Shown: positions 30,063 through 43,352, counted from the stretch's first letter. The stretch is 64,000 nucleotides of DNA from Gemmatimonadota bacterium (GCA_003221005.1 QHTZ01000099.1:2829-66828); one strand, 5' to 3'. Notes: generated from the letters alone by a model not told the origin. A program made the numbers and translations.

Positions 30063-31214
30063 CTAGAACACCTTCGCGACCATCTCCCCGACAAAGTACC
30101 CTACGCCCGCCACTCCGAGTCCCACGACGAACATGTCAGTCCCGCTTCGGATCACCCCCCGGCCGGTGAACAGGCTGCGCGCCGCGCCGACCAGGAAGTG
30201 CGACAGCATGGCGATCGTGAACGCCGTCCACGCCGCTGCGCGGGCCGGCAGCACCAGGAACGGTGCGACGGGGATCAACGCACCGACGGCGGTCGCGGCG
30301 CCCGTGAGCCACCCTTCCTTGAACGGCGTCGCGTGCGCCTCGCCGATCTTCAGCTCCTCGCGCACCTGCTCCCCCAGCGCGCGCTGCGGGTCCTGCATGA
30401 CCTCCGAGGCCATGCGGTGCGCCGTACGGGGATCGACGCCCTTGGCCTGGTAGAGCAGCATGAGCTCCTCCTGCTCCACGTCGGGCATCAGTCGGATCTC
30501 TTCCTTCTCCATCGCGATCTCGTGCGCGTACACCTCGAGCTCGCTCTTCGCCGCGAGGTACCCGGAGGCACCCATCGAGAGCGCGTCCGCGATCATCCCA
30601 GCGAGCCCGGACACGAGCACCACGTGCGGCGCCACGTCCGCCCCGATCACACCTGCGACGAGTCCGAAGTTGGCCGTCAGCCCGTCGTTGAACCCGTACA
30701 CCACGTTGCGCAGGAAGCCGCCCGACTCGGTCCGGTGCCACGGCTCGGAGCTGCGCCCGGCGAGACTCGCCAGCGTCTCGGCGTGCTCGGCCGACTCGCG
30801 GGCGAGGGTGAGCGACACCTGCCGCGCGTCCGCCGCCCGCGACGCCGCGTGCAGGTCCATGTAGCCCTTCACCTCGCGTCCCTCTTCCCGCAGCAACAGC
30901 GGCAGCAAGTAGCGCGGCCCGAAGCGTCGCCCCAGCCACGCCAGTATCCGCGCCTTGAAGGACGGCGGCGGGTCGGTCGCCACCGGTCGGCCGTTGTTAG
31001 AGAGCAGCTTGGCCCAGAGCTCGGTGTGTCGCCGCTCCCCGTCGGCGAGCTGCCGGTAGATTTCCTGCTTGCCCGGGTCGGGCTCTTGAGCCGCAAGCTC
31101 CCCATAGAGGTAGGCGGCGTCGGATTCGTCTTGCCAGTGGTGCAGCCATTCGTGTAGGCTGTGCCGATCTGGCGCTAGGCGTGGGGCGGGGGCGGGGGCG
31201 CGGGCCGTCATCAT
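30063..31214 (-). CDS. VIT1/CCC1 transporter with N-terminal ferritin/rubrerythrin-like domain
   Basis: DE..Y...ERRH...E...EH motifs; VYGFNDGL, ALSMGASGY. Confidence 0.92.
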   Translation of the reverse strand: MMTARAPAPAPRLAPDRHSLHEWLHHWQDESDAAYLYGELAAQEPDPGKQEIYRQLADGERRHTELWAKLLSNNGRPVATDPPPSFKARILAWLGRRFGPRYLLPLLLREEGREVKGYMDLHAASRAADARQVSLTLARESAEHAETLASLAGRSSEPWHRTESGGFLRNVVYGFNDGLTANFGLVAGVIGADVAPHVVLVSGLAGMIADALSMGASGYLAAKSELEVYAHEIAMEKEEIRLMPDVEQEELMLLYQAKGVDPRTAHRMASEVMQDPQRALGEQVREELKIGEAHATPFKEGWLTGAATAVGALIPVAPFLVLPARAAAWTAFTIAMLSHFLVGAARSLFTGRGVIRSGTDMFVVGLGVAGVGYFVGEMVAKVF

Positions 31215-31333
31215 CTAGAAGATAGTCGCAACTTGCAGGATGGCAATAGGTTAGACGATGTCACTGGATGCGGTCGTCCGCGCGTACTTGAGCGCGACGG
31301 CTTACGTCGTTCACGCATCTTAGCTTGCAGGAG

Positions 31334-31873
31334 ATGACGATCTCACTCGCCGTTTCGGACGTTCTGATCGCCCGAGCCAAATCCGGGGACGTGGAGGCTC
31401 TCGAGGCGCTGTACCGCGCCTTCGAGACGCCCGTCTACAACCTGGCGCGCCGCATCCTGCGGAGCCCCGAGGACGCGGAGGACGTGCTCCAGGAGACGTT
31501 TCTCGAAGTCGTGCGGAGCATTCGCTCGTTCCGGGGCGAGGGGCACCTGTGGAGCTGGATCCGCCAGATCGCGTCCTCGAAAGCGCTGATGCGCATCCGG
31601 CGACATCAAGTTCGGGCGGAGGAAGCGTTCGACGAGGAAGCGACCGCCGGTTCGCCTCCCGTAGGCGTGCCCGCGCGCGTGGACCTCGAGCGGGCGTTTG
31701 AGCGGCTGAGCGAGACGTCGCGCGCGGTGGTGTGGTTTCACGACGTCGAAGGGTATACGCACGAGGAGATTGCGGAGATGATGGGCAAGACGGTGAGTTT
31801 TTCGAAGTCGCAGCTGGCGCGGGCCCACGCGCGGCTGCGGCGCATGTTGGAAGGGGAAGGGGCGACCCGATGA
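31334..31873 (+). CDS. ECF RNA polymerase sigma factor
   Basis: DAEDVLQETF, WIRQIA, EGYTHEEIAEMMG..SKSQLARA. Confidence 0.93.
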   Translation: MTISLAVSDVLIARAKSGDVEALEALYRAFETPVYNLARRILRSPEDAEDVLQETFLEVVRSIRSFRGEGHLWSWIRQIASSKALMRIRRHQVRAEEAFDEEATAGSPPVGVPARVDLERAFERLSETSRAVVWFHDVEGYTHEEIAEMMGKTVSFSKSQLARAHARLRRMLEGEGATR

Positions 31874-32457
31874 TGCACTGCACAATTGAGGAGCTGCTCG
31901 CCCTGCGGGCGAACGAAGGATCCGTGTGGGCGCGGCAGCATCTGGAAGCCTGTCCCGCGTGCCGCGCGGAGCTCGAGGCGCTGTACCAGCGCGTGGCGCA
32001 GCTCAAAGCGCTGCCGGTACTGGGGCCCGCCCGGGACCGCTGGCCGGTGATCCGCGACCATCTCGCGGCGCAGCAGCTGCGCCGCCGCCGGCGCTGGACC
32101 GCCTGGGGCCTCGCGGCAGCGGCGGCCGTGATCGGGGTGATCGTGTTGCGCCCCTTCGGGGGCGAGCAAGCGTACGGGGACGAGCTGGCGCAGGCCAAGC
32201 GACAGTCGGCCTCGCTCGAGGCGCAGCTGCAGCGCTACGACCCCGATTCGCGGGTGGAGACCGGTCGCGCGGCCGCGCTCGCCGCCGAGCTCGAGGACCG
32301 GATCGCGGCGGTGGACGCGGAGCTGGCGCGGTTGAATGTCGGCGCGCCGGCTGACCGGGGCGATCGTGACCTGGTGAAGCTATGGCAGGACCGCGTGGGC
32401 CTGATGCAGCAGCTCATGGAAGTCCACGTCACGCGCGCGTCCTACGTCGGGTTGTAG
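31870..32457 (+). CDS. Zinc-binding anti-sigma factor-like membrane protein
   Basis: HLEACPAC (HxxxCxxC), one TM segment, coiled-coil C-terminus; ATGA overlap with the sigma gene. Confidence 0.8.
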   Translation: MMHCTIEELLALRANEGSVWARQHLEACPACRAELEALYQRVAQLKALPVLGPARDRWPVIRDHLAAQQLRRRRRWTAWGLAAAAAVIGVIVLRPFGGEQAYGDELAQAKRQSASLEAQLQRYDPDSRVETGRAAALAAELEDRIAAVDAELARLNVGAPADRGDRDLVKLWQDRVGLMQQLMEVHVTRASYVGL

Positions 32458-32496
32458 CGGGCCGTCGTGGAGATCATTCGGAAGGGTAGGAACTAC

Positions 32497-33396
32497 ATGA
32501 AGACGGCCACCGCAGTCCTTGCACTCGCGACCCTCATCCTAGGTGGGGCCGGTAGCGCAGCAGGCCAGGAGCCTCCGCGCGTCCCCGCCGCACCCGCTCC
32601 CCCTCGTGCCACGCGCCACCCCCGCGCGTGGGCGTTCTCGATGGACGACCACCACGGCCGGCTGGGGGTGCTCGTGAACACGGATGCCAACCCCGCGATG
32701 GACAGCGTCGGGGCGCGACTCGAGGCGGTGACGCCGGGTGGCCCCGCGGCCAAGGCGGGGCTCAAGGCAGGCGACGTCATCACGCGATTCAACGGTACCG
32801 GGCTCGCCGGCCCGCGGGGCGATGATGACGAGTCAGGTCCCGGCCAGAAGCTCGTGCAGCTGGCGCGTGCGCTCGCTCCCGGCGACACGGTGCAGATCGA
32901 GTATCGCCGGGGGGGCGGGACCGACGTCAAGAAGACGACGCTCGTCGCAGCGGAGGTGGGCGGCATGGGCCGCATGATGGATATGGACCGCGTCGAGCTA
33001 CGGGCGCCTCACGTGATGGACATGCTCCCACACGAGGGCGAGTTCTCATTCTGCTTTGGGGACGCCTGGTGCGACATGGAGCTGGTCAGCCTCAACCCGG
33101 ACCTGGGCGAGTACTTCGGGACCAAGGAAGGGGTCTTGGTCGTCAAGGCGCCCGCCGACTCGAGCCTGCCGCTCAAGAGCGGGGACGTGATCCAGGCGAT
33201 CGGCGCGCGCAAGCCCACGTCCGCTTCCCACGCGATGCGCATCCTGCGCTCTTACGACACCGGCGAGACGGTCACGATCGAGGTCATGCGGAAGCAGAAG
33301 CGGACCAGCATCACCTGGCACGTGCCGAGTCGCGGCGAGCGCGGACGCCCGTACATGCGGGTGCACCGCGACTCGGACGAGGACGACCCTAACTAG
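32497..33396 (+). CDS. Secreted tandem-PDZ protein
   Basis: Signal peptide; GRLGV, GPAAKAGLKAGDVI, LKSGDVI; no trypsin domain seen. Confidence 0.85.
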   Translation: MKTATAVLALATLILGGAGSAAGQEPPRVPAAPAPPRATRHPRAWAFSMDDHHGRLGVLVNTDANPAMDSVGARLEAVTPGGPAAKAGLKAGDVITRFNGTGLAGPRGDDDESGPGQKLVQLARALAPGDTVQIEYRRGGGTDVKKTTLVAAEVGGMGRMMDMDRVELRAPHVMDMLPHEGEFSFCFGDAWCDMELVSLNPDLGEYFGTKEGVLVVKAPADSSLPLKSGDVIQAIGARKPTSASHAMRILRSYDTGETVTIEVMRKQKRTSITWHVPSRGERGRPYMRVHRDSDEDDPN

Positions 33397-33400
33397 CTAA

Positions 33401-33426
33401 CGGGCCACGCAGCTCAGCGTGGCCCG
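33401..33426. terminator. Hairpin between convergent genes
   Basis: Perfect 10-bp stem CGGGCCACGC / GCGTGGCCCG with a 6-nt loop. Confidence 0.65.
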
Positions 33427-33447
33427 CTGTGCGTCGCGCCGCCGCGC

Positions 33448-35361
33448 TCACTTGCTGCGGCGGGCGTGCGGGAGTGCCTGGTCGAAGGCGGTGAACTCGA
33501 ACGGCTTGGGGATGTAGGGCCGGCCGGTGGAGGCGAGGAAGTTGCGCACCTGCTCGTCCACCAGCTGGCCGGTCGTGAAGATCACCCGCTCGGCATGGGC
33601 CGGGTCCTTCACCCGCAGCTCCTCGTACAGCTGCTCTCCGGAGAGGTCGGGCATCCGCATATCCACGACCACCGCGTCGAAGGTACCCTCGCGCAGCCGC
33701 GCCAACGCGTCTCGGCCGCTCGCCGTGGTCTCGATCTCGTGCCCGCGCGAGGCGAAGTAGCGCTGCAGGGCGACGCGGACGGAGGCCTCGTCGTCCACCA
33801 CGAGAATGCGGAGCCGCTCGCCAGCGGCCGCGCTGGTCGGCGTTCCGGCGAACTGCTCGCTCTCCTGTGACGCGACGAGCGGCAGCTCGATCGTGAAGTG
33901 GGCGCCGCCCGTGGGGGCGTTTTCGGCCCAGATCTTTCCCTCGTGCTCGCGCACGATGCCGAGCGAGATCGAGAGCCCGAGGCCGGTGCCTGACCCCGTG
34001 GGCTTGGTGGTGAAGAACGGATTGAAGATCCGCTCGAGCAGGTTCGGGGGGATCCCGGGGCCGCTGTCCTCCACCTCGATCCGGATGACGTTGCCGGCGC
34101 GGCGCGTGCTGACGAGCAGGCGCTGGGTGTTCCCCTGGCGCTTCTCCATCGCCTGTTCCGCGTTGGTGATCAGGTTTAGGAACACCTGCTGCAGCTGGTG
34201 CGCGTCGGCCATCGTCTCGGGAAGGTCTTCGTCGTAGTCCCGCACGACTTCGATGCCCCGGACCCGCAGCTCGTATCCCCGGAGCTCGAGCGCGTCGTCC
34301 AGCACCTGATTGAGGGACGTGGAGGTTCGCTCGGGCTTGTGCTGGCGCGCGAAGGTGAGAAGGTTCTGCACGATGCGCGACGCCCGGCGTGCCTCGGCGT
34401 AGATCATCTCGGCGGCGGTGCGCTGGTCGGGGGGGAAGCGCTTTTCCGTGAGCAACAGCTGGGCGAAGGCGGAGATACCCGCCAGCGGGTTGTTCAACTC
34501 GTGCGCCACGCCCGAGACGAGCTGCCCGATCGCGGACATCTTCTCCGACTGGATCAGCTGCTCCTGCAACATCTTCTGATCGGTCACGTCACGAATGAGG
34601 CAGAGCACCTCCTCGTCGCGCTGCGGCGTCGAGTACGTCACGGAGATGGTGCGGATCTCCCGGTCCTTGCGGTAAAACGTCGTCTCGTACTGCCCCGTCT
34701 CCCCCGCCAACGCCTTCTGGAAGTGGCCCAGTACCTTGGGAAGCTCGTCGTCGGGGAGCATCGGGGCGAACCACTGCCCGATCAGCTCCTCGCGCCGGTA
34801 CCCCGAGAGCAGCTCGCCGGCGTGATTGACCGTGGTGAACCGGCCGCTCGCGTCGAACGTCACGATCGCGTCGGACGCCGACTCGACGAGGTTGCGGTAG
34901 CGCGCCTCGGAGCGGGCGAGCGTGTCATGGGCCCGCTTTTGGTCGGTGATGTCTCGCAGCATCGCGACGGTCCCGACCAACTCGCCGTCCAGCTCGAGCG
35001 GCGTCGTCGAGACCGCCACGTCGCGTTCGACCCCGTCCAGCCGTATGATCTTTGTCTCGTAGCGCTGTTCCTCGCCCCCCCGCGCGCGCTGCTCCCGCTC
35101 CTCGACGTGCGGCCGCTCCTCCGCGATGACGAGCTCGTTGACCGCCGTGCCCGGCAGGTCTTCGAGCGGCCGCCCGAACAGCTCGGCGGCGGCGCGGTTG
35201 ACCGTGAGGATGCGGCGGTCGGTGCCCGTGACCACGACCGCGTCCGCCAGCGCCGCGACGATCTCGCGAGCGATGGCGAGCGGATCGAACGCTGCCCGCT
35301 TCGCGGTCGCGGCCGATTCCCGCAGCTCCCGCGACGGCGATGTGCGTTGCCGCCTACTCAT
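33448..35361 (-). CDS. Cytoplasmic PAS-PAS hybrid histidine kinase with receiver domain
   Basis: AHELNNP, NLITNA, DSGPG, FFTTK, GTGLGL; REC motifs VDDE, DMRMP, KPF. Confidence 0.95.
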   Translation of the reverse strand: MSRRQRTSPSRELRESAATAKRAAFDPLAIAREIVAALADAVVVTGTDRRILTVNRAAAELFGRPLEDLPGTAVNELVIAEERPHVEEREQRARGGEEQRYETKIIRLDGVERDVAVSTTPLELDGELVGTVAMLRDITDQKRAHDTLARSEARYRNLVESASDAIVTFDASGRFTTVNHAGELLSGYRREELIGQWFAPMLPDDELPKVLGHFQKALAGETGQYETTFYRKDREIRTISVTYSTPQRDEEVLCLIRDVTDQKMLQEQLIQSEKMSAIGQLVSGVAHELNNPLAGISAFAQLLLTEKRFPPDQRTAAEMIYAEARRASRIVQNLLTFARQHKPERTSTSLNQVLDDALELRGYELRVRGIEVVRDYDEDLPETMADAHQLQQVFLNLITNAEQAMEKRQGNTQRLLVSTRRAGNVIRIEVEDSGPGIPPNLLERIFNPFFTTKPTGSGTGLGLSISLGIVREHEGKIWAENAPTGGAHFTIELPLVASQESEQFAGTPTSAAAGERLRILVVDDEASVRVALQRYFASRGHEIETTASGRDALARLREGTFDAVVVDMRMPDLSGEQLYEELRVKDPAHAERVIFTTGQLVDEQVRNFLASTGRPYIPKPFEFTAFDQALPHARRSK

Positions 35362-36032
35362 GTCTCATACGATGCCGTCATGGCCTCCCGCATCAGCTTG
35401 AGGCTTTTCACCGAGGCGGTGCTTACCTCCTCGGCCTCCTCGCCCTTCGCCACGCAGCGCTTAATGATTTCGAGAGCATGCAGCGGGTGCTCGTCGTCGT
35501 ACTTGGCATGCTCCTCGAGCCACCAGCGGCCGCGCGGACCGATCTTCTCGTTGTTGCCCAGGCCCCGCAGCGCCTTTTCCGAGATCTTCTGCGCCACTCC
35601 CTCTACCGCATAGTTCACGGCGCCGACCGCCGCGGCGAATGCCGCCGTACGGCTCATGGCCGTGAGATAGTCGTGGAACACCCGCGTTTCCGGAATCATC
35701 GGCTCCGGGATCTTGAACCGCTCCCGCGGCACGTTGAACCCGTCGCCCATCGCCCGCCACATGGCGTCGTGGCGCTTCTCCACCCTGATATTATCCCTGA
35801 AAAACGCTTGCCCCTCGGCCGGAGAGCGATCCAGCAGCATCTGGAGCCATTGCGGAAAGTCCCGGATGATGGGGTAGAAGGCAACCAGGAAGTTCTGAAC
35901 CTTGCCGTCGGCTAGGTGGTTCTCCGACGCCTCTACCACCACCTTCGTGTCGAGGATCGCCTCACGATGCGGCTCCAACGCCGCATCCAGATCGGCGACC
36001 CAAGGCGGGTGGGGAGTGACCTGCACAGTCAT
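35358..36032 (-). CDS. Heme-oxygenase-like diiron protein (TenA/PqqC/CADD superfamily)
   Basis: EKRH, AVEG, HAKYDDEH metal-ligand pattern. Confidence 0.8.
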   Translation of the reverse strand: MTVQVTPHPPWVADLDAALEPHREAILDTKVVVEASENHLADGKVQNFLVAFYPIIRDFPQWLQMLLDRSPAEGQAFFRDNIRVEKRHDAMWRAMGDGFNVPRERFKIPEPMIPETRVFHDYLTAMSRTAAFAAAVGAVNYAVEGVAQKISEKALRGLGNNEKIGPRGRWWLEEHAKYDDEHPLHALEIIKRCVAKGEEAEEVSTASVKSLKLMREAMTASYET

Positions 36033-36200
36033 GCGAGCTCCTTACAGGGCGCGAGCGGTCGGAAACAGGGGACCTAGCAAGCGCACTAATCTACACCCGG
36101 CATGGAGTGACGCAAATTGAGATAGCGTGGTGACTTGGGACACATCAGGTGGACCCTAGGAAGCCCTCCAGTTGCACCAGTTTGGGCTGACCCTCGCCCA

Positions 36201-36230
36201 TTGACACGATATATCTACACGCAGTAACTT
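36201..36230 (+). promoter_or_regulatory. Sigma70 promoter with palindromic operator upstream of padR
   Basis: TTGACA (36201), 18-nt spacer, TAACTT; palindrome GATATATC at 36208-36215 within the spacer. Confidence 0.6.
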
Positions 36231-36258
36231 GACGTAACATCTTACCACAGGTGCAATC

Positions 36259-36795
36259 ATGACACGCGGACTCGGATGGGACGCCTTCGGCTTCGGGTTT
36301 GGCCCGCGAGCCTGGGCCTGGTCGGGGCGGCGGCGCCGCCGGCAATGGTTTGAGTCCGGGGATATGAAGTACGTGATCCTCAAGCTGCTCCAAGACAAGC
36401 CCCGACATGGCTATGAGGTCATGAAGGAGCTGGAGGAGCGGATGCACGGCTGTTACAGCCCCTCTCCCGGGACCGTCTACCCCACCCTGCAGTGGCTCGA
36501 GGACGAGGGCCTGGTCACAGCGCGAGACGTGGATGGCAAGAAGGTTTACGAGGTGACCGACGCGGGGCGACAGTTTCTCCAGGAGCACCGCGACGTCGTA
36601 GACGACATCTTCGAGCGGGTGCGCGAGGCGGTGGATCGGGTGGCTGGCGGGGGGATGGTCGACGTCAACCGTGCCCTCGGGCGGGTGGTCAAGGCCGTAT
36701 ACCGCGCCGGCTGGAAGGTCGATGAAGCGGCGCGGAAACGCGTCGCCGAGCTGCTCGCCAAGGCGGCGGAGGAGATCGAGGGGCTGGCAAACTGA
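36259..36795 (+). CDS. PadR-family transcriptional regulator
   Basis: PRHGYEVM, SPGTVYPTLQ.LEDEG, KKVYEVTDAG. Confidence 0.93.
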   Translation: MTRGLGWDAFGFGFGPRAWAWSGRRRRRQWFESGDMKYVILKLLQDKPRHGYEVMKELEERMHGCYSPSPGTVYPTLQWLEDEGLVTARDVDGKKVYEVTDAGRQFLQEHRDVVDDIFERVREAVDRVAGGGMVDVNRALGRVVKAVYRAGWKVDEAARKRVAELLAKAAEEIEGLAN

Positions 36796-36806: not shown

Positions 36807-38165
36807 ATGGAGCGCGGCAGGCGGCAGGCGATCGTGATGGGCGGCAGCATGGCCGGATTGCTGGCCGCCCGTGTCTTGAGCGACCACTTCGACCACGTCA
36901 CTGTGATCGAGCGGGACCGCTTCCCCGAGGGCCCTGAGCATCGCAAGGGCGTGCCCCAGGGGCGACACTTTCACATCCTGCTCAAGCGGGGCGAAGCTGC
37001 CCTGGCGCGCTTCTTCCCGGATCTGGCGCCGGCGCTCACGGACGGCGGGGCTCCTGTCGTGGACATCGGCGCCGACATGCGCATCTACCAGTACGGCGAC
37101 TACAAGGTCCAGTGCGCCACCGAGGCATGTCTGGTTTTTCTGAGCCGCCCGTTTCTGGAGTGGCACGTGCGCCAGCGGGTGCTTTCCCGCAAGAACGTCG
37201 CGGCGCTCGACCAGTGCGACGTCGGAGGACTCATCACCAATGGCGATCACACGCGTGTGAGCGGCGTGACCGTCCAGCGGTCCCCAGGACGGGGGCAGGA
37301 GACACTGGAGGCCGACCTCGTCGTGGACGCTACCGGACGGGGGTCGCAGTCGGCGGCATGGCTGGAAGGGCTGGGGTATCCCCGACCGCCCGAAACGACC
37401 GTGACCGTGGACCTCTCGTACACCAGCCGCGTGTACCGGCGCACGCCTGCCGATCTACCGGGCGCCAAGGCCGCCTACGCCCTCCCCAAGCCACCGCACG
37501 AGAAGCGCTTCGGGGCGCTCTTCCCCATGGAAGGGCAACGCTGGATCGCCACGCTCGGCGGCTGGCTGGGAGAGTGCGCTCCGGCGCACGAGGCGGGGTT
37601 TCTGCAGTTCGCCCGAGGCCTTCCCGCGCCCGACATCGCCGCTGTCCTGCCGCGCCTCGAGCCGCTGACCGACTTTGTCGTCCATCACTTCCCGGCGAAC
37701 CGCTGGCGGCACTACGAGCGCCTGGCCCGGTTTCCCCTAGGCTATCTGATCGTGGGCGACGCCATGTGCAGCTTCAACCCCGTCTACGGGCAAGGCATGA
37801 CGGTCAGCGCGCTCGAAGCGCAGACGCTCGATGACTGTTTGCGGGAGCGTGGCGATGGCGACCTGAGCGAGCTGTCGCGGAATTTCTTCGGGCGCGCGGC
37901 CAAGGCGGTGGCCGAAGCCTGGCTGATGACGGTCACTGAGGATTTCCGTCACCCGGGCGTCGCGGGCACCAGGCCGCGCGGCAGCGGCGTGATGAACTGG
38001 TACACGGGGAGGATCTACGAGGCGGCGGTCTACGACGCATACGTGTACCGCTCGTTTCTCCAGGTCCTCACCATGCTGCGTCCCCCGGCGAGCCTGCTCG
38101 GACCGCGCCTGTTGCTGCGGGTAATGAGTGGGGGCCGGGGCGGAGGCCGGAGACCGAAGGTCTAG
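36807..38165 (+). CDS. FAD-dependent oxidoreductase (monooxygenase/epoxidase-like)
   Basis: GGSMAG, ERD, VDATGRGS, GDA.CSFNPVYGQGM. Confidence 0.88.
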   Translation: MERGRRQAIVMGGSMAGLLAARVLSDHFDHVTVIERDRFPEGPEHRKGVPQGRHFHILLKRGEAALARFFPDLAPALTDGGAPVVDIGADMRIYQYGDYKVQCATEACLVFLSRPFLEWHVRQRVLSRKNVAALDQCDVGGLITNGDHTRVSGVTVQRSPGRGQETLEADLVVDATGRGSQSAAWLEGLGYPRPPETTVTVDLSYTSRVYRRTPADLPGAKAAYALPKPPHEKRFGALFPMEGQRWIATLGGWLGECAPAHEAGFLQFARGLPAPDIAAVLPRLEPLTDFVVHHFPANRWRHYERLARFPLGYLIVGDAMCSFNPVYGQGMTVSALEAQTLDDCLRERGDGDLSELSRNFFGRAAKAVAEAWLMTVTEDFRHPGVAGTRPRGSGVMNWYTGRIYEAAVYDAYVYRSFLQVLTMLRPPASLLGPRLLLRVMSGGRGGGRRPKV

Positions 38166-39151
38166 CGACCGCGTCTGTTGCGCAGCTCGTCGAGCGCGCC
38201 TTTCACGTACACGCGCGTCATCTGCTTCCGCCACGACAGGTCGAAGTCGGTGTTGTCGAGCGGCTTCGCCGGGCGGTAGGCCGACTCGGCGGCCGCCGCG
38301 ATGCGCTCGTCCGAGAGGTGCTCCCCTCGCAGCGCGGCGCCCGCTTCGGGCACCTCCAGGGGTTGGCTTGCCACCCCGCCCAGCACGATCCGCGCGTCGG
38401 CAACCACGGCGTCATCCCAGCGAACCCACGCCGCGACCCCGAGGACCGGGAAGTCAAAGGACCCGCGGCGGCGGAGCTTGCGGTATACCGCGTCCCACCC
38501 GTCCGGCGGCGGGAGGCGAACCTCGACCAGGATTTCGTCGGGGTGCTTGGCCAGATAGTTGATGCCGTCGTTCTGATAGAGACGCGCGGCGGGGACCATG
38601 CGCTCGCCTCCGGGGCCGACCAGCAGGAATTCCGCGCCGATCGCGACCGCGACGGGCGCGACGTCGGACGAGCTCACCGCCCAGCAGCGGGGGCTGGACG
38701 GCGCCACCCAGCAGATCGCCCCGTCCTTCTTCATGCAGAAGTCGATCGCCTTCCGCCACTCGTAGGTCTGGTTGTAGTAGTTGCAGCGGGTGTCGAGGCA
38801 CAGGTTGCCGCCCAGCGTCCCCATGTTGCGGAGCAGCGGAGTGCTCACCAGCTCGGCCGCGTGCGCGACTGCGGAATACTTCCGGCGGATTGCCGGATGG
38901 GCGGCCAGGTCGGTCAAACTCGTGTTTGCGCCGACCACGCATCCCGCATCCCGCATCTCGCATCCCGTGAGCTCCCGGATTCCCATCAAAGAGATGACGG
39001 TGCGCGGCTCTTGATGTCGCCGCTTCATGTTGGGGTAGAGGTCGGTCCCGCCGGCGACGTACATCCCGTCCGCCCCCGCGTCGGTCTTGGCGGCGACGGC
39101 CTCGCGCACGCTGCGAGGCTGGCGATAGGTGAAGCTGGGAAGGCGTAGCAC
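38162..39151 (-). CDS. Xanthine-oxidase-family FAD subunit with [4Fe-4S] insert (HcrB-like)
   Basis: AGGTDL, TLGGNL, C-x15-C-x7-C-x8-C insert; GTG start. Confidence 0.88.
   Translation of the reverse strand: MLRLPSFTYRQPRSVREAVAAKTDAGADGMYVAGGTDLYPNMKRRHQEPRTVISLMGIRELTGCEMRDAGCVVGANTSLTDLAAHPAIRRKYSAVAHAAELVSTPLLRNMGTLGGNLCLDTRCNYYNQTYEWRKAIDFCMKKDGAICWVAPSSPRCWAVSSSDVAPVAVAIGAEFLLVGPGGERMVPAARLYQNDGINYLAKHPDEILVEVRLPPPDGWDAVYRKLRRRGSFDFPVLGVAAWVRWDDAVVADARIVLGGVASQPLEVPEAGAALRGEHLSDERIAAAAESAYRPAKPLDNTDFDLSWRKQMTRVYVKGALDELRNRRGR
38938..38965 (-). repeat. 4 x heptamer ([G/A]GATGCG on the coding strand) inside the FAD subunit gene
   Basis: Plus strand CGCATCC CGCATCC CGCATCT CGCATCC; encodes GCEMRDAGC. 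Confidence 0.85.
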
Positions 39152-41643
39152 TAGCGATGTCTCGATGCTGTCGCTATGGTGTCTACGTCTTCCCAGGGCG
39201 GCGGCACGTACGTCGGCTCAGGCCAAGGGATGGCGGGGAAGCTGGTGGGGCCGTAGCGGGGCGGCTCTCCCTTGGCTTTGCGCTTGAGCGCCTTGAGCAC
39301 CTTCTCGGGGGTGATCGGGACTTCGTCCACGCGGACCCCCACGGCGTCGTACACGGCGTTCGCTACCGCCGGCATGACGGGGAGGAGCGGTCCCTGTCCG
39401 GCCTCTTTCGCGCCGAACGGCCCATTCGGGTCCGGGTGCTCCACGATGTAGGTGACGACGTCACACATCTCGAGCGTGGTCGGGCTCTTGTACTCGAGCA
39501 GGCTGGGGATCTTGTGCACCACGTGGCGATTGGCCCGATACGGCATTTCCTCCATGAGCGCTTCGCCGAGTCCCATGTAGACGCTGCCTTCGATCTGGCC
39601 GATGACCGCCGCCGCGTTGATGCAGCGCCCGACATCGTGGGCGATCCAGATCCGCGGCACCCGCACGATCCCGGTGTCGGGCTCGACTACCACCTCAGCT
39701 ACGGCCGCGCTGTACGAATACGCGGGCGACGGTCCCACTCCCGCCCCGCGGTAGCGCCCCGACGCGGGGCTGCGCGGCGGCGTGTACGACCCCATGGTGC
39801 CTACCGTTCCCTGTGCCGCTTCGGCGAGCTGGACCGCCTCGGCGAAGCTGATGGCGCGGGTCGGGTCTGCCGCGTCGCAGACCCTCCCGTCGGCGAACCG
39901 CACCCGCACGGCGCTCACACCGAGGCGCTCCCCGGCATAGCGGGCGAGGATGTCACGTGCCCGTTCGGCGGCCTGAATAGCCGCGTTTCCGGTCATCAGC
40001 GTGACCCGGCTCGAATAGCTCCCCAGGTCCACCGGCGTGAGATCGGTGTCGGCGGCTACGACGGCGACGTCGAAGGGGTCGAGCCCCAGGACTTCCGCGA
40101 CGATGATGGCGAGGACGGAGTCCGAGCCCTGGCCGATTTCGGTGGAGCCGCAGAACACCGTCACGCCCCCGCCGCGGTCGCACTTGAGCTGCACGCCCGA
40201 GTGCGGCATGTCGTTCCAGTACACGGGCAGCCCGGCGCCCGTGAGGTAGCTCGAGCAGGCGAGCCCGACGCCCTGGCCGAACGGCAGCTTGCGGAAGTGG
40301 TCCTTCCATCCCGACCCGTCCACCACCTTGCGGATACAGTCGCCCAGGCCGATCGAGCCGACGCGCAGGTAGTTCGCCGTGACGCTGTCGGGGGGGACGA
40401 GGTGGCGGAGCCGCAGCTCGGCGGGATCGAGGCCGAGCTGCTCTGCGATCTTGTCGAGGTGGACCTCGAGGGCGAAGCGGGGTTGCGGCGTGCCGTGGCC
40501 GCGCTTGGGGCCGCACGGCGGCTTGTTGGTGAAGGCGCGTGCGCCCTGGAACTTGTACCGGGGAATGTGATACGTGACTGTCTGGAGCGCCCCCGTGTAG
40601 TACGTGCTCGCGACGCCGTAGGACCCATACGCTCCGCCGTCGAGCAGCGACCGGAAATGCATCGCCGTGATGGCGCCATCGCGCTTCACACCCGTCTTCA
40701 CCCACATGAGCGTCGGGTGGCGCCCGCGGTGGCAGTAGAACACCTCCTCCCGCGTCAGGGTGATCTTCACCGGCCGGCCGGTCACCATGGCGAGCTTCGC
40801 CACCACGATCTCGTGGCTGAAGGGGTCGCTCTTGCCCCCGAACGCGCCGCCGTTGGGCGTCGCGATCACGCGGATGCGGGCGGGCGGGAGCTCGAGCACC
40901 TGGGCCAGGGCGCGGTGCACGTAGTGTGGTGTCTGCGTCGAGCTCCAGAGCGTCAGCTTGCGGTCCGGCGACCAGTCCGCCACGGCCGCGTGCTGCTCCA
41001 TGGGGAGGTGCGTGCTCCCCTCGAAGAAAAGCAGGTCCTCACGCACCAGATCCGCCTCGGCGAAGCCGCGCTCCACGTCGCCGAATTCGAGGGAGACGAC
41101 CTTGTGGAGATTGCCCCCGTGTCCGTAGTCGTGGATGCGCGGGTCCGGGGTCTCGACTGCGTCCTCCGCCGACGCGATGGCCGCGAGCGGCTCGTACTCG
41201 ACCACGATCAGGTCGAGCGCCGCGGTAGCGATCTCCTCGCTCCTGGCGGCGACGGCGGCAACCGGGTCTCCGACGAATCGCACCTTGTCGAGCGCCAGGG
41301 CGTGCTCGTCCTGGCTCACGGGCAGGATGCCGAAGGGGATCGGGAGGTCTCGCCCGGTGAGCACCGCATGCACGCCGTCGAGCGCGAGGGCACGCGAGAC
41401 GTCAATGCGCCGGATACGGGCGTGCGGCTGGGTGGAGCGCAGCACCTTGGCGAACAGCATGCGGGGCAGGAACAGGTCATCGGCGAACTTGGTGACGCCG
41501 GTGACTTTCGCGGTGGCGTCGACCTTGCGGAACGCCTTCCCAATGCGACGGAAGGACGGGACGGCAGGGGGACCCATGCTAGTGTCCTGTATCCCCTTTC
41601 CGTCCTTCCGTCGTTCCGTCGCTTTTCTCTTACCGGCGGCCAT
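39151..41643 (-). CDS. Xanthine-oxidase-family molybdopterin subunit (HcrA-like)
   Basis: GGAFGGK, EIGQG, GSYSSR, AKEAGQG; GGAG RBS before ATG 41643 (alternative start 41577). Confidence 0.9.
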   Translation of the reverse strand: MAAGKRKATERRKDGKGIQDTSMGPPAVPSFRRIGKAFRKVDATAKVTGVTKFADDLFLPRMLFAKVLRSTQPHARIRRIDVSRALALDGVHAVLTGRDLPIPFGILPVSQDEHALALDKVRFVGDPVAAVAARSEEIATAALDLIVVEYEPLAAIASAEDAVETPDPRIHDYGHGGNLHKVVSLEFGDVERGFAEADLVREDLLFFEGSTHLPMEQHAAVADWSPDRKLTLWSSTQTPHYVHRALAQVLELPPARIRVIATPNGGAFGGKSDPFSHEIVVAKLAMVTGRPVKITLTREEVFYCHRGRHPTLMWVKTGVKRDGAITAMHFRSLLDGGAYGSYGVASTYYTGALQTVTYHIPRYKFQGARAFTNKPPCGPKRGHGTPQPRFALEVHLDKIAEQLGLDPAELRLRHLVPPDSVTANYLRVGSIGLGDCIRKVVDGSGWKDHFRKLPFGQGVGLACSSYLTGAGLPVYWNDMPHSGVQLKCDRGGGVTVFCGSTEIGQGSDSVLAIIVAEVLGLDPFDVAVVAADTDLTPVDLGSYSSRVTLMTGNAAIQAAERARDILARYAGERLGVSAVRVRFADGRVCDAADPTRAISFAEAVQLAEAAQGTVGTMGSYTPPRSPASGRYRGAGVGPSPAYSYSAAVAEVVVEPDTGIVRVPRIWIAHDVGRCINAAAVIGQIEGSVYMGLGEALMEEMPYRANRHVVHKIPSLLEYKSPTTLEMCDVVTYIVEHPDPNGPFGAKEAGQGPLLPVMPAVANAVYDAVGVRVDEVPITPEKVLKALKRKAKGEPPRYGPTSFPAIPWPEPTYVPPPWEDVDTIATASRHR
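41547..41621. repeat. Inverted octamer-array hairpin (GACGGAAG / TTCCGTCN) in the 5' end of the Mo subunit gene
   Basis: GACGGAAGGACGG... at 41547; TTCCGTCC TTCCGTCG TTCCGTCG at 41598-41621. Confidence 0.8.
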
Positions 41644-42073
41644 AGAGGCTCTCCGGGGCCGGTGTCGAATCTTCACCACGCAGGCGGGCCGCAGCCATTT
41701 CCACCGCTTCGTAGATCTTGTCGCGCAGCAGCGCAAGGGCGGTGAGCAGGAACGCCGGGGTGCAGTAGCCGCACTGCGCCGCGCCCAGCTCGGCGAACGT
41801 GTCCTGCAACGGGTGCAACTGCCCGCGCGCGGCCATCCCCTCGACGGTTTGCACTCGGCGCCCAGCGCACGCCTGGCCGAGCACGAGGCAGGACAGCACG
41901 GGCCGGTCGTCCAGCAGCACGGTGCAGGTGCCGCATTCGCCCAGCTCGCAACCGTGCTTCGTTCCGGTGAGGCCGAGGTCCTCGCGCAGCACTTCGAGCA
42001 GCGTCTTGTGGGGGGCAAACGCGACCTCGGCCGGCTCGCCGTTAAGGTCGAGCGCGATCTTGACCTTGGCCAT
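41630..42073 (-). CDS. [2Fe-2S] subunit (HcrC/CoxS-like); the second-cluster CxC segment is missing
   Basis: GCELGECGTC and QCGYCTP present; NLCRCTGY segment absent before KIYEAV. Confidence 0.85.
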   Translation of the reverse strand: MAKVKIALDLNGEPAEVAFAPHKTLLEVLREDLGLTGTKHGCELGECGTCTVLLDDRPVLSCLVLGQACAGRRVQTVEGMAARGQLHPLQDTFAELGAAQCGYCTPAFLLTALALLRDKIYEAVEMAAARLRGEDSTPAPESLYGRR

Positions 42074-42131
42074 ACGCGAAACCTAACAGCCTTGGCGCCC
42101 CGGCAGTGCAGCGGTATCATTCGCGGCATCC

Positions 42132-43352
42132 ATGGTCCCTCGAGCGATCGCCGCGCCGCTGCTGACACTGGGTCTCTGGGTCGGTCCAGCTCGCCACCTG
42201 ACCGCCCAAGCGCCCGCCTACCGCGACAGCGCGGTGCGCATCCTCCGCACAGTCCCCCTCATCGACGGCCACAACGACATTCCCGACGCGATCCGCGAGC
42301 ACGGCGGGCTCGACTCGGTGAACTTCGCGGTACCGCAGCCCAAGCTGATGACCGACATCCCCCGGCTCAGGGCCGGCGCAGTGGGGGCCCAGTTCTGGGC
42401 GGCGTACGTTCCGGTGACGACGCTCCATGGCGGCGAGCACCCCGGCGTTTACGCGCTCGAGCAGATCGACCTCATCCATCGGCTGTGTCGCAAGTACCCT
42501 CAGACGTTCGCAATCGCGCTGACCGCCGCCCAGGTTCAGGCAAACTTCGCCCGGGGACGCATCTCATGCCTCATCGGGATCGAGGGCGGTCACGCGATCG
42601 AGAACTCGCTTGGAGCGCTGCGGATGTTCTACGCGCTCGGCGTACGCTACATGACCCTGACACACTGGGAGACGATTGATTGGGCGGACGCCGCGACTGA
42701 CAGCGCCAAACACGGCGGCCTGACGCCGTTCGGCGAGGACGTGGTGCGTGAGATGAACCGCCTCGGCATGCTGGTGGATCTGGCGCACGTGTCGGACGGC
42801 ACCATGAGCGCGGCGCTGCGCGTGTCGCGCGCCCCCGTCATCTTCTCGCACTCTTCCGCCCGGGCGCTGTCCAACCACGTGCGCAATGTGCCCGACTCGA
42901 TCTTGCTGCGGGTCAAGGCAAACGGCGGCATCGTCATGGTGAACTTCTATCCCGCGTTTGTGTCGGAGGCGCTGCGCCAGCATGAGGAGAGCGGGCAGGC
43001 GCGGGTGCGCGCATTCCGCGCGGCGGGGCTCGACAGCGCCGCGATCGCGGACTCGACCCGCCGTTGGGCGGCGGCGGCACCGCACGCTACCCTCGCTCAG
43101 GTTGCGGACCATATCGATTACGTCCGCAAGGTGGCCGGCGTGGACCACGTGGGCGTGGGCTCGGACTTCGACGGCATCACCACGACGCCCGACGGCCTGG
43201 AGGACGTGTCGAAATTCCCAGATCTGATTGCGGAGCTGCTGCGCCGTGGCTGGACGGCACAGGATATTCGCAAGCTGGCGGGGCTGAACCTACTGCGAGT
43301 GATGAGCGAGGCAGAGAGGGTGGCTGGGCAGGGTCTAGCTGGTAGTCGATAG
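42132..43352 (+). CDS. Membrane dipeptidase (peptidase M19)
   Basis: IDGHND, IEGGH, DLAH, FSHS, GSDFDG; signal peptide. Confidence 0.93.
   Translation: MVPRAIAAPLLTLGLWVGPARHLTAQAPAYRDSAVRILRTVPLIDGHNDIPDAIREHGGLDSVNFAVPQPKLMTDIPRLRAGAVGAQFWAAYVPVTTLHGGEHPGVYALEQIDLIHRLCRKYPQTFAIALTAAQVQANFARGRISCLIGIEGGHAIENSLGALRMFYALGVRYMTLTHWETIDWADAATDSAKHGGLTPFGEDVVREMNRLGMLVDLAHVSDGTMSAALRVSRAPVIFSHSSARALSNHVRNVPDSILLRVKANGGIVMVNFYPAFVSEALRQHEESGQARVRAFRAAGLDSAAIADSTRRWAAAAPHATLAQVADHIDYVRKVAGVDHVGVGSDFDGITTTPDGLEDVSKFPDLIAELLRRGWTAQDIRKLAGLNLLRVMSEAERVAGQGLAGSR

Follow-up and report, generated by a model that had tools for sequence, protein, structure and literature searches.

A heme-oxygenase-like diiron protein and a soluble PAS-PAS hybrid histidine kinase form a conserved gene pair in Gemmatimonadales that probably functions in signaling

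We analyzed a 64,000-nucleotide (nt) stretch of DNA from a Gemmatimonadota bacterium (GCA_003221005.1 QHTZ01000099.1:2829-66828; hereafter the window), in which positions 33448..36032 encode a heme-oxygenase-like diiron protein (HDO) and a soluble hybrid histidine kinase. This gene pair is a conserved unit in the Gemmatimonadales. Because the genes are coupled, the proteins co-occur and relatives of the HDO are recurrently associated with signaling genes, we consider it likely (a probability of about 0.8) that the two proteins act jointly in signaling as one functional unit. The original prediction, made from this DNA alone, had suggested either an O2/Fe sensor or a signal synthase-receptor pair. 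The functional coupling that it assumed is supported by conservation and co-occurrence, and of the two roles that it put forward we lean towards the signal synthase-receptor pair.

Results

The two genes overlap and are conserved as a pair

The HDO gene (35358..36032, minus strand, 224 residues) and the kinase gene (33448..35361, minus strand, 637 residues) share the four bases ATGA (35358..35361), such that the HDO coding sequence ends ...GAG ACA TGA and that of the kinase begins ATG AGT..., an arrangement indicative of translational coupling. An AAGGAG ribosome-binding site lies 5 nt ahead of the HDO start codon (36038..36043, minus strand), and a GGAGGAG/AGGAG block before the gene is conserved in all 12 loci aligned. 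The G+C content of the window is about 70% and the genome from which it comes is 93.9% complete.

A scan of one genome per species gave 111 relatives of the HDO, the best 80 loci of which (71-86% identity) were retained; all of the named relatives belong to Gemmatimonadales or to Gemmatimonadota metagenome-assembled genomes (MAGs). By tblastn the kinase is directly downstream of the HDO in 78 of the 80 loci, and the contigs of the other two stop 140-185 nt past the HDO stop codon with the start of the kinase open reading frame (ORF) still there. The overlap that had been claimed for the window, and that we read directly at the junction, is a general property of these loci: in 78 of 80 the genes overlap by four bases (ATGA or GTGA), in one they overlap by a single base, and in one (L075) the kinase start is disrupted. 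Across the 80 loci there is extended synteny around the pair, which includes the genes for leucyl-tRNA synthetase (LeuRS), a VIT-family transporter, an extracytoplasmic function (ECF) sigma factor and CoxLM. Nevertheless, the flanks rearrange. The stretch between the PadR and CoxLM genes varies between loci while the HDO-kinase pair stays, and in L040-L080 the pair is retained with an M14 carboxypeptidase gene inserted downstream of the kinase. The insert of about 3 kb was examined for a phosphorelay partner and encodes the carboxypeptidase instead. The genes of a 59%-identical copy of the pair in genome G160 are also still together.

The HDO has a patchy distribution: of 301 genomes taken from the whole phylum only 27 have it, nearly all of one family, and in a set of 131 genomes of that family it is present in 21. 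This family set was used to test co-occurrence, with the PAS-PAS region of the kinase as the probe and an orthologue taken as a match of 59-100% identity at E <= 4e-90. The matches split into two groups, 20 genomes having an orthologue and all others having matches of 40% identity or less, the sole exception being a partial second PAS-PAS copy in G337 (57% identity over residues 24-150). All 20 genomes that encode a kinase orthologue also encode the HDO, and conversely the orthologue is present in 20 of the 21 HDO genomes and in none of the 110 HDO-negative genomes. The HDO gene of the lone HDO genome without a kinase orthologue (G361) is truncated by a contig end and that genome is therefore uninformative. 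In G068 the two genes are on separate contigs and the kinase match begins at residue 21, which looks like an assembly break at the HDO/kinase junction. Omission of both unpublished genomes, G182 and G308, changed the counts to 18 of 18 kinase genomes with the HDO and 18 of 19 HDO genomes with the kinase and left the conclusion unchanged (one of the 80 loci, L068, may be the G182 contig).

The HDO is a predicted diiron oxidase of the UndA branch

The HDO matches the Pfam family PF14518 (Haem_oxygenas_2, 'iron-containing redox enzyme') with E 1.7e-15 and 57.7 bits against a cut-off of 28.9, and no model of the NCBIfam library matches it. A phmmer search of the PDB with the HDO returned only UndA, the 1-undecene synthase of Pseudomonas (4wwj and 6p5q, E 4.3e-13), and the Pseudomonas syringae homologue 3oql, all at about 5e-13, and no CADD, TenA or PqqC chain at E values up to 10.

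The intact diiron ligand pattern (EKRH, E, HxxxDxxH) seen in the original prediction holds up in the alignment with UndA (4wwj and 6p5q), where all six ligands correspond residue for residue and with the same spacing. The pattern in full is E85-K-R-H88 (GAG AAG CGC CAC, 35769..35780), aligned to the E-x2-H of UndA; E144 (35601..35603), placed by the UndA alignment and by conservation in the clade; and H175-x3-D179-x2-H182 (35487..35510), aligned to the H-x3-D-x2-H of UndA, all on the minus strand. These ligands are invariant in 19 of 19 close relatives, and 58 of the 63 sequences from the wider clade have kept them. Six other residues, W11, F59, N81, W171, A186 and E188, are common to the HDO clade and are also present in the UndA alignment.

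An AlphaFold2 model of the HDO, built from the 63-sequence alignment, is all-helical with a mean predicted local distance difference test score (pLDDT) of 95.5 and a predicted TM-score (pTM) of 0.92. When the model was compared with the PDB by Foldseek the top match was UndA (4wx0, TM-score 0.87), fatty-acid-bound UndA structures having scores of 0.84-0.88, followed by CtCADD (0.84) and then by the TenA/PqqC folds (0.7-0.78). According to the accessible text of a 2026 review, HDOs are defined by a seven-helix heme-oxygenase fold and a motif of three histidines and three carboxylates (3H/3C). The modeled HDO is a helical bundle of this kind, as judged by its UndA, CADD, TenA and PqqC fold matches, and the UndA alignment and clade conservation give it the 3H/3C ligand set. 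On these tested features the protein belongs to the heme-oxygenase-like diiron superfamily as a predicted diiron oxidase, and it looks like a competent oxidase of the UndA branch. The close sequence kinship expected of an UndA orthologue was not seen, given the E value of 4.3e-13, an identity of 20-22% in the structural alignments and a clade that stands separately in a quick tree (see below). Moreover, at 224 residues the HDO is smaller than UndA (about 260); it has three short deletions, and its C-terminus is shorter.

The partner is a soluble hybrid histidine kinase

The kinase domains, all encoded on the minus strand and assigned by Pfam and (excepting HATPase_c) an orthologue alignment, are PAS1 (residues 32-140, 34942..35268), PAS2 (residues 153-265, 34567..34905), HisKA (residues 279-340, 34342..34527, E 4.1e-18) with the phospho-acceptor H287, HATPase_c (residues 386-495, 33877..34206, E 1.6e-28) and a Response_reg receiver (residues 519-628, 33478..33807, E 6.1e-19) with D567. 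All 30 orthologues compared retain both H287 and D567. Thus, with its HisKA histidine, HATPase_c domain and receiver aspartate the 637-residue protein is a hybrid histidine kinase. PAS1 varies among the orthologues and PAS2 is nearly invariant, which makes PAS2 a candidate site for a ligand or a partner protein. The Pfam scan of the kinase found no Hpt domain.

The kinase had been predicted to lack transmembrane segments and we agree that none is credible: the best 19-residue hydrophobic window (1.66, residues 28-46) contains R, E and D and falls within PAS1. The protein could not be placed in a named kinase family (AtoS, FixL, NtrB, CckA and others), since its scores against the NCBIfam equivalogs all fell far short of the cut-offs (AtoS, for instance, 298 bits versus 646 and FixL 167 versus 850). 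In the PDB the PAS-PAS region had only weak matches to phytochrome and MmoS PAS domains, hence a PAS cofactor cannot be assigned. Prediction of a complex of kinase residues 1-505 with the HDO, done with alignments but without controls, gave a score of 0.00 and a mark of 0.32 and counts neither way.

Relatives in other phyla adjoin signaling genes

An exhaustive profile-free search of 1.84 billion representatives gave 190 clusters at E <=0.001, of which 28 were at E <=1e-30. The nearest full-length out-group of the HDO consists of proteins of 365-443 residues with 32-44% identity, and five of the seven long forms scanned have an N-terminal PilZ domain (PF07238, E 2e-11 to 3e-15). At 90% identity such PilZ-HDO fusions group into 251 clusters, five of which are named and come from MAGs of Nitrospiraceae (three), 'Deltaproteobacteria' (one) and Thermodesulfobacteriota (one). 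PilZ domains bind cyclic di-GMP (c-di-GMP) through the motifs RxxxR and D/NxSxxG. Both motifs are present in 14 of the 29 fusions examined.

A metagenome scan with this sister clade as the query gave 247 relatives, from which 80 loci were retained, and 25 large neighboring proteins were scanned with Pfam. Seventeen are histidine kinases, mostly of a seven-transmembrane (7TM)-GAF-HisKA-HATPase architecture, four are PAS-PAS-GGDEF-EAL proteins, three are (REC-)PilZ-LuxD-like acyltransferase/hydrolase-methyltransferases and one is a methyltransferase. Further neighbors are LuxD-like thioesterase-methyltransferases, sigma54-type response regulators, additional kinases, FadL/TodX outer-membrane channels (L088 and L094), REC-HD-GYP-like proteins having the RpfG architecture and, in L163, a fatty-acid desaturase. 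The Pfam-verified proteins then served as BLAST probes for a tally in which merging at 97% nucleotide identity reduced the loci to 66 clusters. In 47 of these the HDO gene has a kinase or GGDEF-EAL gene within 650 nt, one long-flanked cluster has none, and the flanks of the remaining 18 are too short. The 47 comprise 34 clusters with a kinase on the same strand, three with a divergent kinase and ten with a GGDEF-EAL gene on the same strand. A ratio of 47/48 is biased because a locus was counted as informative when a neighbor was found; among loci with both flanks of at least 1.5 kb, 30 of 31 have a signaling neighbor.

A quick tree, which contains no UndA sequence, resolves three groups: the Gemmatimonadales clade, a grade of PilZ/7TM-kinase forms and a GGDEF-EAL clade. 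As the three genomic contexts fall in the three groups, these data represent about three independent associations rather than dozens. In the GGDEF-EAL clade unfused HDOs stand behind RbdA-type PAS-GGDEF-EAL proteins. The GGDEF-EAL neighbor in L151 is a clear homologue of Pseudomonas aeruginosa RbdA (PA0861; 5xgb) with E 4.7e-217 over 558 residues, and the HDO behind it matches UndA with E 6.7e-23 only. We looked for specific kinship between the PAS domains of the window kinase and those of the RbdA homologue or the 7TM-GAF kinases and found only generic similarity (RbdA homologue, 27% identity, E 7e-6). The neighborhood check that accompanied the original prediction was therefore strongly positive, in that the pair is conserved and co-occurs within Gemmatimonadales and its relatives elsewhere adjoin kinases, PilZ domains or RbdA-type GGDEF-EAL proteins.

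Several sister-clade loci deserve description in their own right. L111, together with L109-L114, L116 and L124, has a cluster of fixed gene order: a LuxD-like thioesterase-methyltransferase, a 579-residue protein with a C-terminal NAD(P)-binding domain, a 7TM-GAF kinase, the PilZ-HDO fusion, a second 7TM-GAF kinase, a sigma54 response regulator and a REC-HD-GYP-like protein. The 579-residue protein has BLAST matches inside the PilZ-HDO gene, possibly owing to a shared PilZ-like part. In L097 (4901-8487, plus strand) the genes after a 7TM-GAF kinase encode a C39-peptidase ABC exporter and an HlyD-type protein, which constitute a peptide-export pair.

A search for longer forms gave three apparent HDO-PAS-kinase fusions (P0407, P0408 and P0410) and a P-type-ATPase-HDO protein (P0409), all single-member 'src' entries from what we take to be a catalogue made by protein-level assembly. 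The three apparent kinase fusions were rejected as genuine: they have three different internal junctions, with parts of both proteins deleted, and are probably assembly chimeras. These entries (P0407-P0410) call for caution when the 'src' catalogue is mined for domain fusions. No genuine HDO-kinase or HDO-cyclase fusion was found in this search, which is itself weak evidence.

The intergenic region and surrounding genes

Divergent from the HDO gene is a gene encoding a PadR-family regulator of 178 residues (36259..36795, plus strand; PF03551, E 3.2e-23). A PadR gene is upstream of the HDO in 79 of the 80 Gemmatimonadales loci, the sole miss being L008, which has a flank of only 67 nt. An alignment of 12 loci showed conserved intergenic blocks, GATGTTACG and GATATATCGTGTCAA (36201..36242, minus strand), that are 17-58 nt upstream of the PadR start and are invariant or nearly so in all 12. 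Read on the plus strand, the direction of PadR transcription, the blocks give TTGACA-N18-TATCTT around the palindrome GATATATC. From these sequence features the region is likely the PadR promoter and operator. A scan of 33200-36400 for consensus sigma70 promoters found none, including in the intergenic blocks, and the single terminator-like match in the same interval is inside the HDO gene and within chance expectation.

On the far side of the kinase are an ECF sigma factor, a 241-residue ORF and a PDZ-domain protein (31325-33396, plus strand), a trio that is convergent with the kinase gene and conserved across the loci. The 241-residue ORF overlaps the sigma gene and has the position of an anti-sigma factor, without a Pfam match, and the PDZ-domain protein has a signal-peptide-like N-terminus. 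Beyond these is a VIT1-family iron/manganese transporter (30063-31214, minus strand; PF01988, E 9e-58), the N-terminus of which has a weak match to a rubrerythrin/ferritin-like stretch (E 7e-4). It is syntenic with the pair in the loci that lack the M14 insert and could bear on an iron-sensing role. Just past PadR is a FAD-dependent oxidoreductase (36807-38165, plus strand) with weak Pfam matches. As among the 80 loci this gene is shared only with L001 and L002, it lies outside the conserved unit. The next genes are a CoxM/CoxL-like molybdenum hydroxylase set (38162-42168, minus strand), which includes a [2Fe-2S] small-subunit-like ORF (41630-42073). These were named by eye from their translations and served as synteny markers.

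Discussion

The genomic data make it likely that the HDO and the kinase function together, and we favor the reading in which the HDO, as an oxidase resembling UndA, produces or eliminates a hydrophobic signal derived from a fatty acid and sensed by the kinase through PAS2. This proposal is tentative and we would put it at slightly less than even odds. With Fe(II)2 and O2, the HDO would act on a free fatty-acid-like substrate by oxidative chemistry of the UndA type, for example decarboxylation to a terminal alkene, and the reaction would make or remove a small hydrophobic signal. The co-translated soluble kinase would read either the substrate or the product, most likely via the nearly invariant PAS2 domain. 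Ligand sensing would then set autophosphorylation of H287, followed by transfer to D567 of the kinase's own receiver, and the signal would pass to a phosphotransfer or response-regulator partner encoded elsewhere. As the HDO needs both O2 and Fe(II), kinase output would depend on both. In this scheme we infer the chemistry and the class of substrate, as well as what each PAS domain binds and in which direction control runs.

We favor a catalytic role because of the UndA kinship and the lipid-handling neighbors found in the sister clade, because every characterized HDO is an enzyme and because the undA-rbdA pair and 1-undecene provide a precedent. The accessible text of the 2026 review lists about a dozen validated HDOs, all of them enzymes with fatty or amino acids as substrates, and describes a hydrophobic channel in UndA that accommodates a C10-C14 acid, the carboxylate of which is on Fe1. 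According to the available portion of PMC10614000, which cites Rui et al. 2014, undA always accompanies rbdA in Pseudomonas; RbdA is stated there to modulate c-di-GMP and biofilm, and 1-undecene is argued to be an aerial communication molecule of P. fluorescens MFE01 that affects biofilm maturation. Our control genomes gave matches only in Caulobacter and Sulfolobus, and for the undA-rbdA adjacency in Pseudomonas we rely on PMC10614000.

Several observations weigh against this reading. Loci from a single bacterial family are non-independent observations, and in the sister clade the well-flanked L163 has no signaling neighbor. The low identity to UndA (20-22% in structural alignments) means that a substrate cannot be assigned. 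The partner sensor modules are non-homologous across clades (soluble PAS-PAS, 7TM-GAF and RbdA-type), which would be explained more simply if the HDO itself were the shared sensor. A combination of putative synthase, putative receptor and substrate-supplying or export genes is seen in the sister clade, whereas the window has only the HDO, the kinase and PadR. The genome of the window lacks a homologue of the LuxD-like thioesterase-methyltransferase, the search giving only weak matches to methyltransferase motifs, and hence the lipid context of the sister clade does not carry over. In the available portion of PMC10614000 the work on RbdA and 1-undecene 'is planned', and no receptor role for RbdA is demonstrated there. 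Finally, there are HDO copies that lack a kinase. The window's own genome (G000) has a second HDO of 69% identity on the 9-kb contig C121 (L081:6873-7577, minus strand), with its ligands intact, having a PKD-domain protein on one side and a convergent S9 peptidase on the other. In the quick tree this copy is nested within the kinase-linked clade, with a Shimodaira-Hasegawa-like approximate likelihood ratio test (SH-aLRT) support of 98, and thus it looks as if it either arose by later duplication and lost the linkage or is on a contig of another population in the bin. G174 also has a second copy without a kinase (64% identity, contig C20, L082:2311-3433, minus strand), which is followed on the same strand by a 161-residue SRPBCC (START-like)/polyketide-cyclase-like protein of the hydrophobic-ligand-binding type.

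The chief competing explanation is that the HDO is not a biosynthetic enzyme but a stand-alone sensor subunit, the labile diiron site of which, upon binding or oxidation in response to Fe(II) supply, O2, peroxide or NO (nitric oxide), would order or disorder a ligand-bearing helix, after which the protein would bind and switch its partner. We judge this to be unlikely but keep it under consideration because the partner sensor modules vary and HDO clusters are labile. The HDO does show the adjacency to and co-occurrence with varied signaling enzymes expected of such a subunit, the same small protein being paired with non-homologous partners in different clades. H-NOX and NosP, small metalloproteins that are encoded beside and co-occur with kinases or GGDEF/EAL proteins of varied architecture, show the same pattern, and hemerythrin-type sensors offer a case of diiron chemistry, but the fold and cofactor environment of the H-NOX-HnoK, NosP-NahK and hemerythrin-type systems differ from those of the HDO. 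The strictly kept four-base overlap (78 of 80 loci) would fit production of the two proteins in fixed proportion, the absence of substrate-supplying genes from the window's genome points the same way, and the VIT1-family iron transporter found at a distance of 2.2 kb in the window, as in many loci, lends weak support. The accessible text of the 2026 review describes the diiron cluster as labile and the core helix alpha3 as flexible and becoming ordered upon metal binding in several HDOs, which would provide a ready-made conformational switch. That same text, which records only enzymes among the validated HDOs, has 0 occurrences of 'kinase', 'sensor' or 'signal' and shows no HDO as a sensor. 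Also contrary to a sensor role are the embedding of the sister clade among lipid-handling genes, the lack of genuine fusions to kinases or cyclases (the three apparent ones probably being chimeras and the search weak) and the identity of the sole robust fusion partner, PilZ, a domain that usually gates enzymes. The broader proposal that HDOs constitute a new class of modular O2/Fe(II)/oxidant sensor subunit, serving soluble PAS kinases, PilZ and 7TM-GAF kinases and RbdA-type phosphodiesterases, with UndA-RbdA as one instance, seems to us a shade less likely again.

Other explanations dispense with a shared signaling function or with UndA-type chemistry. Coupling could reflect co-expression only, the HDO being an output or housekeeping enzyme (for example in lipid remodeling or fatty-acid detoxification), with one promoter serving its gene and that of a kinase whose PAS domains sense something unrelated. 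ATGA overlaps are common in bacterial operons whatever their function, HDO paralogues without an adjoining kinase exist, and the divergent PadR could control the operon alone. We nevertheless regard this as improbable, given that the two genes occur together without exception wherever the data allow a judgment (20 of 20 and 0 of 110) and that association with signaling has been re-created elsewhere with three types of partner, which co-expression does not predict. Inherited synteny without function among close relatives is disfavored and to our minds very improbable: all 80 loci are from one order and share extended synteny around the pair, but the pair is patchy (27 of 301 genomes of the phylum and 21 of 131 of the family) and yet both genes are gained and lost together, the flanks rearrange while the four-base junction stays, and distant relatives in other phyla have analogous pairings. 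Least credible of all is that the HDO is a self-sacrificial para-aminobenzoate synthase like CADD and NePabS or a metal-free enzyme of the TenA/PqqC type. The fold similarity (TM-score 0.84 to CtCADD and 0.7-0.78 to TenA/PqqC) and database labels of HDO relatives, which include 'PqqC' and 'TenA', would fit, and CtCADD and NePabS share the 3H/3C family with the HDO; however, the phmmer search of the PDB returned UndA and its homologue and none of these proteins, and the HDO differs from CtCADD and NePabS in genomic context and distribution. The full 3H/3C set argues that the HDO is not metal-free, and its patchy distribution is a poor fit to an essential role in folate or thiamin synthesis.

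Returning to the UndA-like oxidase that we favor, the closest known system is UndA itself (4WWJ, 4WX0 and 6P5Q), the best match in both sequence and fold. As in the undA-rbdA pair described in the available portion of PMC10614000, the HDO gene has a conserved PAS-containing signaling neighbor, and an RbdA homologue is directly ahead of related HDOs in 10 dereplicated metagenome loci. The partner of undA is a GGDEF-EAL protein, whereas that of the HDO, in a different phylum, is a translationally coupled soluble PAS-PAS hybrid histidine kinase. The PilZ-HDO fusions of Nitrospirota and Thermodesulfobacteriota, the nearest out-group, retain the ligands and in 34 dereplicated loci have a kinase beside the gene on the same strand, but differ in the N-terminal PilZ domain and the membrane-bound 7TM-GAF kinases. 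They also have genes for LuxD-like thioesterase-methyltransferases, FadL, sigma54 regulators and REC-HD-GYP proteins, none of which is in the window. The diffusible signal factor (DSF) and Phc systems (RpfF with RpfR or RpfC-RpfG, and PhcB with its sensor kinase and the methyl ester of 3-hydroxypalmitic acid (3-OH PAME)) resemble the HDO-kinase pair in logic only. In these systems the gene for a fatty-acid-modifying enzyme adjoins that of a PAS-GGDEF-EAL protein or a histidine kinase by which the enzyme's product is sensed, and an RpfG-like REC-HD-GYP architecture occurs in the sister-clade clusters, but the DSF and Phc enzymes (a crotonase and a methyltransferase, respectively) are of families unrelated to the HDO. 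The available portion of PMC10614000 gives the PhcB system as a precedent for a volatile signal.

In the literature searched (about 1.7 million PubMed Central articles and most subscription papers were outside the search) we found nothing published that links an HDO to a histidine kinase, to PilZ or to a two-component system. PilZ-HDO fusions with 7TM-GAF kinases are undescribed there, and PMC10614000 was the only paper found that joins '1-undecene' with 'RbdA'. The HDO-kinase pair appears to be an UndA-family oxidase with a dedicated signaling partner, an arrangement of a known but barely explored kind.

The literature has regarded HDOs as enzymes for natural products and hydrocarbons. The present data show a branch related to UndA with ties to two-component and c-di-GMP signaling in at least three phyla. 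If the HDO is a signal synthase, the pair would belong to an unrecognized family of hydrocarbon or lipid signals with dedicated receptors and would provide a receptor candidate for volatiles of the 1-undecene type; if it is a sensor, it would be a new kind of iron/oxygen sensor. As the Gemmatimonadales version is minimal, two soluble proteins encoded in one operon, it should be the easiest in which to test either idea in vitro. In either case the pair bears on how signaling proceeds in an abundant and poorly studied group of soil bacteria.

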